A stretch of 64,000 nucleotides of DNA, from assembly GCF_003334255.1 (NCBI RefSeq), contig NZ_QOWU01000012.1. The stretch is one strand, 5' to 3'. Shown piece after piece: positions 36,314-38,577 of this stretch (position 1 is its first letter; every line of letters begins with the position of its first letter). The notes beneath the pieces were generated by a model. The model ran no database searches and was not told the origin of the DNA. It saw nothing but the letters and a program-made list of their open reading frames with translations. This DNA comes from Escherichia coli. GTDB taxonomy: Bacteria; Pseudomonadota; Gammaproteobacteria; Enterobacterales; Enterobacteriaceae. The translations under genes and the position numbers were made by a program.

Positions 36314-38577
36314 CCAGGCCAGTAACGTTATCAGAACCCCATTTCAGCCAGCATACCCTGAACAAGTATGCATCGCTGATGGCGCAGGGGAACGGCTATC
36401 TTGGGCTTCGCGCCAGCCATGAAGAAGATTACACGCGCCAGACGCGAGGGATGTATCTGGCGGGGCTGTATCATCGGGCGGGAAAAGGTGAAATCAACGA
36501 ACTGGTGAACCTGCCTGATGTCGTGGGGATGGAGATTGCCATAAATGGTGAGGTTTTCTCGTTATCCCACGAAGCCTGGCAGCGTGAGCTTGACTTTGCC
36601 AGTGGCGAATTACGCCGCAATGTTGTCTGGCGTACCAGCAACGGCTCAGGTTACACCATCGCCAGCCGTCGCTTTGTTTCGGCAGACCAACTGCCGCTCA
36701 TTGCGCTGGAAATCACTATTACGCCACTGGACGCCGACGCGTCAGTGCTGATTTCAACAGGCATTGACGCCACGCAAACCAATCACGGTCGCCAACATCT
36801 CGACGAAACCCAGGTGCGGGTGTTTGGTCAGCATCTGATGCAGGGGAGCTACACCACCCAGGATGGACGCAGTGATGTGGCCATCAGCTGTTGCTGTAAG
36901 GTGAGCGGTGATGTGCAGCAATGCTATACCGCCAAAGAGCGCCGTTTACTGCAACATACCAGTGCGCAGCTTCATGCAGGCGAGACAATGACGTTGCAAA
37001 AACTGGTGTGGATCGACTGGCGGGATGACAGGCAAGCTGCTTTAGACGAGTGGGGCAGCGCGTCGCTTCGCCAGCTTGAAATGTGCGCGCAGCAGAGTTA
37101 CGACCAACTTCTTGCAGCATCAACAGAAAACTGGCGTCAATGGTGGCAGAAACGTCGTATCACGGTAAATGGCGGCGAAGCGCACGATCAGCAAGCGTTA
37201 GATTATGCGCTTTATCATCTGCGCATCATGACGCCTGCCCACGACGAGCGCAGCAGCATTGCGGCAAAAGGCTTAACCGGCGAAGGCTACAAAGGCCACG
37301 TTTTCTGGGATACAGAAGTATTTTTGTTACCGTTTCATCTGTTTAGCGATCCGACGGTTGCCCGAAGTTTACTGCGTTATCGCTGGCACAACTTGCCAGG
37401 CGCGCAGGAGAAAGCGCGACGCAACGGCTGGCAGGGCGCGCTATTTCCGTGGGAAAGCGCGCGCAGCGGCGAAGAAGAGACGCCGGAATTTGCCGCCATT
37501 AACATTCGCACCGGGCTGCGGCAAAAAGTGGCCTCGGCGCAGGCGGAACATCATCTGGTGGCCGATATCGCCTGGGCGGTTATTCAATACTGGCAGACCA
37601 CGGGGGATGAAAGTTTCATTGCGCATGAAGGCATGGCGCTACTTCTGGAGACGGCAAAGTTCTGGATTAGCCGCGCGGTGAGAGTTAACGATCGTCTGGA
37701 AATTCATGATGTTATTGGGCCAGACGAATATACCGAACATGTCAATAATAATGCATACACCAGCTATATGGCCCGCTACAACGTTCAACAGGCGCTGAAT
37801 ATTGCCCGCCAGTTCGGCTGTAGCGACGATGCGTTTATCCATCGCGCCGAAATGTTCCTCAAAGAGCTATGGATGCCAGAAATTCAGCCCGACGGCGTTT
37901 TGCCGCAGGATGATTCGTTTATGGCTAAGCCGGCGATTAATCTGGCGAAATACAAAGCGGCGGCGGGGAAGCAAACCATACTGCTGGATTATTCACGCGC
38001 AGAAGTGAACGAGATGCAGATCCTCAAACAAGCTGATGTGGTGATGCTCAATTACATGCTGCCGGAGCAGTTCTCAGCGGCATCGTGTCTTGCCAATCTG
38101 CAATTTTATGAACCGCGCACTATTCACGACTCGTCATTAAATAAAGCAATCCACGGCATTGTTGCCGCACGCTGTGGCCTGCTGACCCAAAGTTATCAGT
38201 TCTGGCGCGAGGGGACTGAAATCGATCTTGGTGCTGATCCGCATAGTTGTGATGATGGTATCCATGCTGCCGCAACTGGCGCTATCTGGCTGGGGGCGAT
38301 TCAGGGTTTTGCCGGGGTGAGCGTGCGTGACGGTGAATTGCATCTCAATCCGGCGTTACCTGAGCAGTGGCAACAGTTGTCTTTCCCTCTGTTCTGGCAG
38401 GGCTGCGAATTACAGGTCACTCTTGACGCGCAGCGTATTGCGATTCGAACTTCTGCGCCCGTTTCACTGCGTTTGAACGGTCAGCTTATAACCGTGGCTG
38501 AAGAATCTGTTTTCTGTTTGGGTGATTTTATTTTGCCCTTCAATGGGACCGCTACCAAACATCAGGAGGATGAATGA
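36310..38577 (+). CDS. ycjT: GH65 glycoside phosphorylase (kojibiose phosphorylase-like) YcjT
   Basis: 755 aa; overlaps ycjS by 4 bp. Confidence 0.9.
38544..38557. promoter_or_regulatory. Second candidate YcjW operator, inside the 3' end of ycjT and 17 bp upstream of ycjU
   Basis: TGGGACCGCTACCA identical to the site at 28616-28629; flanks also similar (ttcaatgggaccgctacca vs ttcatgggaccgctacca). Confidence 0.4.

Follow-up and report, generated by a model that had tools for sequence, protein, structure and literature searches.

The 3' end of the kojibiose phosphorylase gene ycjT of Escherichia coli carries a genuine operator of the LacI/GalR-family repressor YcjW, placed in a dispensable tail of the coding sequence, where it most likely serves as a roadblock to transcription elongation. 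We put the probability of this reading as a whole at roughly 0.55. The window, i.e., the whole stretch of 64,000 nucleotides that was analyzed, is a segment of the E. coli chromosome with pspE, ycjMNOPQRSTUV-ompG, and ycjW. The element, here called O2, is an already published YcjW binding site; what our analysis adds is the footprint that it leaves on synonymous sites, the lack of any conserved sigma-70-like promoter beside O2, and an argument from the dimeric state of the repressor. The features that are needed below are the following, with coordinates in the window.

28578..28606, + strand: ycjM promoter, TTGACA-17 nt-TAGTCT, with the same hexamers in 12/12 genera

28616..28629, + strand: YcjW operator O1, the 14-mer TGGGACCGCTACCA, identical to O2 (from the sequence, the published EMSA probe, and conservation)

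36310..38577, + strand: ycjT CDS (kojibiose phosphorylase), the variable C-terminal tail of which carries O2

38544..38557, + strand: YcjW operator O2, TGGGACCGCTACCA (from the sequence, published ChIP-seq/ChIP-exo, and conservation)

38564..38569, + strand: Shine-Dalgarno sequence AGGAGG of ycjU, 6 nt 3' of O2

38574..39233, + strand: ycjU/pgmB (beta-phosphoglucomutase), the first gene 3' of O2

39247..41279, + strand: ycjV (ABC ATPase, intact) and ompG (porin), the remaining genes 3' of O2

41390..42388, - strand: ycjW, LacI/GalR-family repressor of 332 aa that binds O1 and O2 (from the sequence and the literature)

The initial annotation, made from the sequence alone, had proposed that a second, identical copy of the candidate YcjW operator lies at 38544-38557, within ycjT and 17 bp 5' of the ycjU start. 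The coordinates bear this out: both copies are on the + strand, and 17 bp lie between the last base of O2 and the A of the ycjU ATG, while O1 ends 12 nt 5' of the RefSeq-equivalent ycjM start (28642). The window holds exactly two copies of TGGGACCGCTACCA, with no third match even when two mismatches were allowed, and no exact match was found in 100 shuffles. The full exact repeat shared by O1 and O2 is the 15-mer ATGGGACCGCTACCA, and the likeness of the flanks had been given correctly as 18 of 19 with one indel (ttca-TGGG compared with ttcaaTGGG). The two operators are 9,928 bp apart; O2 is found where gene 8 of the 11-gene operon meets gene 9, 9.9 kb from the ycjM promoter, and occupies the codons N-G-T-A-T-K within the last 11 codons of ycjT. 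As the last 4 bp of ycjT (ATGA) are also the first 4 of ycjU, O2 lies inside ycjT and not between the genes. In other genera, a GGAGG-like Shine-Dalgarno sequence directly adjoins O2.

The 14 bp of O2 form an imperfect palindrome, with halves TGGGACC and GCTACCA around a central CG and 5/7 symmetric pairs; LacI/GalR-family operators are even pseudo-palindromes of about 14-20 bp that have CG at the center, and O2 takes this form. Judged by its sequence, O2 is a standard operator of this family, and by its position it falls in the rare coding-region class: intragenic sites make up <1% of the sites of the LacI family (Ravcheev 2014, PMC4052901), in a study in which YcjW is not named. It had been cautioned that a match of 14-15 nt could arise by chance, and with reason. 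Exact direct repeats of at least 14 nt form about 20 further, unrelated families in the window, so that a repeat of this length, when all is compared against all, could by itself be a product of chance. A search of the window with the degenerate motif TGGKANCGNTMCCA, allowing up to two mismatches, gave 10 matches versus 5.7 expected, and the matches with no mismatch were O1 and O2 only. The O1/O2 repeat is significant because of its conservation and of the published binding data.

In the ChIP-seq analysis of YcjW, the two most enriched regions were ycjM and one described as "between ycjT and ycjU", here placed inside ycjT; the ycjM region precedes the start codon and follows the predicted transcription start site (TSS), and both regions have in common a 14-nt motif with a central CG (Luhachack 2019, PMC6599011). 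The EMSA in that study was performed on a ycjM probe that carries TGGGACCGCTACCA, not on a ycjU probe; weaker YcjW sites were reported at narP (TGGTAGCGTTACCA) and cyaA (TGGTAACGTTCCCA), and kojibiose was found to free YcjW from DNA (PMC6599011). A later ChIP-exo study listed 64 YcjW sites in the genome (Gao 2021, PMC8464067). The strongest of these (#20), at 1378133-1378162 (NC_000913.2), was assigned to ycjU with a signal-to-noise ratio (S/N) of 1665, followed by ycjM with 840, all other sites being at or below 120 (PMC8464067). From the annotation, O2 in MG1655 corresponds to 1380118-1380131 (NC_000913.3). Using an offset between NC_000913.2 and NC_000913.3 that we take to be 1,976 bp (IS1, 1-bp, and IS5 insertions), we converted this to 1378142-1378155 (NC_000913.2), the center of which is within 1 bp of the center of the ChIP-exo interval. 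The published YcjW operator pair (PMC6599011, PMC8464067) is therefore the same element as O1/O2, with the same 14-nt motif as in the ycjM EMSA probe.

Identification of the second copy as a YcjW operator is thus supported by published ChIP-seq and ChIP-exo data as well as by the invariance of its synonymous sites, and the idea is not new. We regard it as nearly certain that O2 is a functional operator of YcjW. Two further ChIP-exo positions were converted to window coordinates. The "ycjM" peak (1368320-1368355 in NC_000913.2, S/N 840) falls at 28722-28757, inside ycjM and about 106 bp 3' of O1, and no YcjW-like motif was found at this position; its offset from O1 may be a peak-calling artifact or something else. 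A third, weak site (S/N 38) maps to 30401-30438, in the 5' part of ycjN, where no operator-like sequence was found.

An in silico comparison of the query with 16 further genomes (17 loci) covered Escherichia clades, five Citrobacter species, Salmonella enterica, S. bongori, Klebsiella sp., Yokenella, Enterobacter sp. SA187, E. cloacae, Leclercia, and Pseudocitrobacter. A contig scan with YcjT yielded five very close loci, and the diversity of the sample came from homologous proteins and then from their encoding contigs; identity of YcjT to the query among the sampled genomes goes from 96% down to 62%. O2 was present in 17/17 loci and O1 in 16/16 of those that include ycjM; neither operator had more than one mismatch or a change of orientation in any of them. 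A LacI-family gene adjoins ompG in 11/11 loci with gene calls. No coordinated change of O1 and O2 was seen in the variant genomes, Escherichia sp. MOD1 and Enterobacter sp. SA187 each having one mismatch per site, and a different one.

The initial annotation had suggested that synonymous-site conservation be checked in this segment of ycjT. This was done, and free variation was refuted, as the third positions of all four operator codons are invariant. In the codon alignment of ycjT over 12 genera (2283 columns), 5.8% of third positions are invariant, and the longest invariant run is the 13 nt GGGACCGCTACCA, the next being 8 nt. Among the 113 columns of this gene with an invariant fourfold-degenerate amino acid, the third base is invariant in 4, and these are GGG ACC GCT ACC, the codons of O2. 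Over the whole operon (14-kb alignment), no invariant run is longer than that of O2, and one other is as long. The conserved block is exactly the 14-mer, with flanks that are not conserved. The residues of the YcjT tail beside O2 and the length of the tail vary freely, and the peptide G-T-A-T is invariant; the codon right after O2 (38558-38560) is a replacement hot spot within Escherichia, where AAA, ACG, ACA, and ATA (K, T, T, and I) are found. Because the third positions of the operator codons are frozen while the YcjT tail around O2 varies, selection holds the 14-mer at the level of DNA and not of protein, and the G-T-A-T peptide is a by-product.

Several other features of the locus were recorded during this comparison. 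The only other invariant 13-nt run in the 12-genus operon alignment is AACTGGGACTGGC in ompG (41090-41102); it encodes N-W-D-W, and its invariance is therefore likely due to protein-level constraint. The operon is decaying in some genomes: in C. freundii, an IS (DDE transposase) replaces ycjV (L007:13820-14976), and in the E. cloacae contig a deletion runs from ycjP to ycjS (L015:8671-10007); both operators are kept in each. In the window, ycjV (39247-40329) is an intact ORF of 360 aa; the MG1655 annotation has ycjV/ymjB as a frameshifted pseudogene, so that the DNA of the window comes from an E. coli other than K-12. Finally, a gene for a rhodanese (PspE-like) is located beside ycjW, and not after pspD, in C. 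freundii (L007:17480-17797) and Klebsiella sp. (L008:16218-16535). This placement is notable in that, in E. coli, both the expression of pspE and the production of H2S go up on YcjW derepression.

The promoter contexts of the two operators were then compared. O1 starts 9 nt from the -10 hexamer of the ycjM promoter in 11/12 genera and 8 nt from it in E. cloacae, where a bound repressor would classically prevent initiation or promoter escape. At O2, a strict scan for sigma-70 promoters found none between 38000 and 38700, and the best relaxed sigma-70-like match near O2 in E. coli scored 7/12 and was 37 nt away. A conserved sigma-70 promoter 5' of O2 was not found across genera either, the best matches reaching 5-8/12 at inconsistent positions; these scans covered sigma-70-type consensus only. 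Of note, the bases that flank O1 (28615-28630) covary over the 12 genera, with A/C at -1/+1 in 7 and G/T in 5. The base at -1, together with the TG of the operator, forms an in-frame ATG or GTG nine codons 5' of the RefSeq-equivalent ycjM start; it lies about at the expected TSS and may represent an alternative ycjM start or a leaderless form.

The oligomeric state of the repressor also bears on how O2 could act. YcjW (332 aa) aligns to residues 5-313 of LacI only and is without the C-terminal tetramerization helix. Its nearest solved relatives are CcpA and PurR, both of which are dimers, and a homology model likewise predicts a YcjW dimer (Gao 2021, PMC8464067).

We favor a roadblock at O2 because no conserved sigma-70-like promoter adjoins it and because YcjW is without a tetramerization tail. 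A YcjW dimer on O2 would block elongating RNA polymerase at the ycjT/ycjU junction. O2 would then be a second checkpoint that stops polymerase that has escaped O1, and it would also stop polymerase coming from internal or psp read-through transcription. In the presence of inducer, YcjW would leave O2, and ycjU, ycjV, and the gene for the large-channel porin, ompG, would be transcribed. Taken by itself, we infer that this mode of action on ycjU-ycjV-ompG stands at about even odds. It is possible, at slightly less than that, that O2 is an intra-operon checkpoint that gates ycjU-ycjV-ompG independently of O1 and insulates these genes from read-through, for example from the strongly stress-induced psp operon directly 5'; on this reading, O2 would have been kept invariant at synonymous sites across genera while the YcjT tail was rewritten around it. 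The psp read-through part of this rationale is one that we infer only.

Published expression data can be set beside this model. Deletion of ycjW leads to derepression of ycjM, ycjT, ycjU, and ompG (PMC6599011), with rises measured by qRT-PCR of 28-62x for ycjM, 20-26x for ycjT, 39-58x for ycjU, and 34-47x for ompG (PMC6599011). Derepression of ycjU and ompG is thus about 2x that of ycjT, which would agree with an additional block at O2; the fit is a weak one, since ycjM rises as much as ycjU, and the small difference may be noise.

Known systems offer partial parallels. CcpA, a dimeric LacI-family protein of Gram-positive bacteria, blocks elongation at intragenic cre sites, which are 14-bp pseudo-palindromes with a central CG. 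O2 has the same operator form, and CcpA is among the closest solved homologs of YcjW; however, CcpA is a global regulator with HPr-Ser-P as corepressor, whereas YcjW is a local repressor that is released by a sugar. PurR in purB, as it is cited in PMC4052901 (He, Smith & Zalkin 1992), is likewise a dimeric LacI-family repressor in a coding region 3' of the promoter. In that account, the purB site is in a first gene, a few hundred bp from the promoter, whereas O2 is 9.9 kb 3' and duplicates a promoter-proximal operator. By analogy, O2 would be compatible with a roadblock of the PurR-purB or CcpA-cre type.

The main rival to the roadblock is an internal promoter in the 3' end of ycjT that YcjW would repress through O2. 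Such a promoter would drive ycjU-ycjV-ompG apart from ycjM-T, and it may be left over from two once separate operons. We consider this rather unlikely, at about half the weight of an even call. The position of O2 just 5' of the ycjU Shine-Dalgarno sequence does resemble that of O1 at ycjM, and in C. freundii and C. amalonaticus the sequence beside O2, ACCAcggaaagg, matches the one beside O1. A -10-like TATTTT is found 9 nt 5' of O2, with the same spacing as at O1, in E. coli, Klebsiella sp., C. koseri, and C. rodentium. However, there is no -35 element to go with it, and this TATTTT, which overlaps the codons F-I-L, is eroded in Salmonella, Yokenella, Enterobacter, and Leclercia, in all of which O2 is kept; the empty strict scan and the 7/12 of the best relaxed match in E. 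coli point the same way.

A fragment cloned in pBR322 (38179-39577, beginning 395 bp 5' of ycjU) complemented ycjU::Tn5, with read-through from the vector being possible, and an internal promoter would also fit the larger rise of ycjU and ompG, relative to ycjT, when ycjW is deleted. On the other side, O2 was not flagged as bound by RNA polymerase in the ChIP-exo table, which was obtained under conditions in which the operon is repressed (PMC8464067). Among the entries covered from the supplementary tables of Cappable-seq and SMRT-Cappable-seq studies, none is for the O2 coordinates or genes; the operon is repressed in laboratory media, and these tables are uninformative for ycjU.

A second alternative is that O2 is an auxiliary operator that loops with O1 to strengthen repression of ycjM, in the manner of lacO2. 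The presence of two identical operators in one operon would suit this reading, and the precedent is in the same repressor family: lacO2 is also a second operator in a coding sequence (lacZ), 3' of the main one. However, lacO2 acts mainly by looping to its O1 over 401 bp through the LacI tetramer, and O2 lacks both of these defining features. Its 9,928-bp distance from O1 is outside the tens to hundreds of bp over which such loops form, and YcjW, a predicted dimer nearest to the PurR and CcpA dimers, is without the tetramerization segment. For these two reasons, we hold looping to be quite improbable.

Conservation of an RNA-level element that affects translation or processing would account for both copies being transcribed in the same sense and lying beside a Shine-Dalgarno sequence in every genome. 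We rejected this reading, which is less probable still, as RNAalifold over the 12 genera gave -3.3 kcal/mol and 6 pairs with no compensatory change, i.e., neither structure nor covariation; binding of YcjW to DNA also fully accounts for the conservation. A chance repeat, or conservation of the YcjT peptide, might be argued from the roughly 20 other repeats of at least 14 nt and from the invariance of G-T-A-T, but this has a negligible probability and is refuted by a third base that is invariant at 4/4 operator columns versus 0/109 of the other fourfold-degenerate ycjT columns, in a surrounding tail that is hypervariable, and by the published binding in vivo.

A genuine YcjW operator that most likely works as an elongation roadblock remains our preferred explanation of O2. 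Whatever its mode of action, O2 shows clearly how a transcription-factor site can impose an absolute constraint on synonymous codons inside a gene, and the strongest YcjW site in the genome is one with no conserved sigma-70-like promoter beside it. If O2 is a roadblock, the ycj operon would offer a natural and well-conserved case of repression in two stages, of initiation at O1 and of elongation at O2. This would bear on the tight silence of ompG in laboratory E. coli and on the extent to which ycjU-ycjV-ompG can be uncoupled from ycjM-T.
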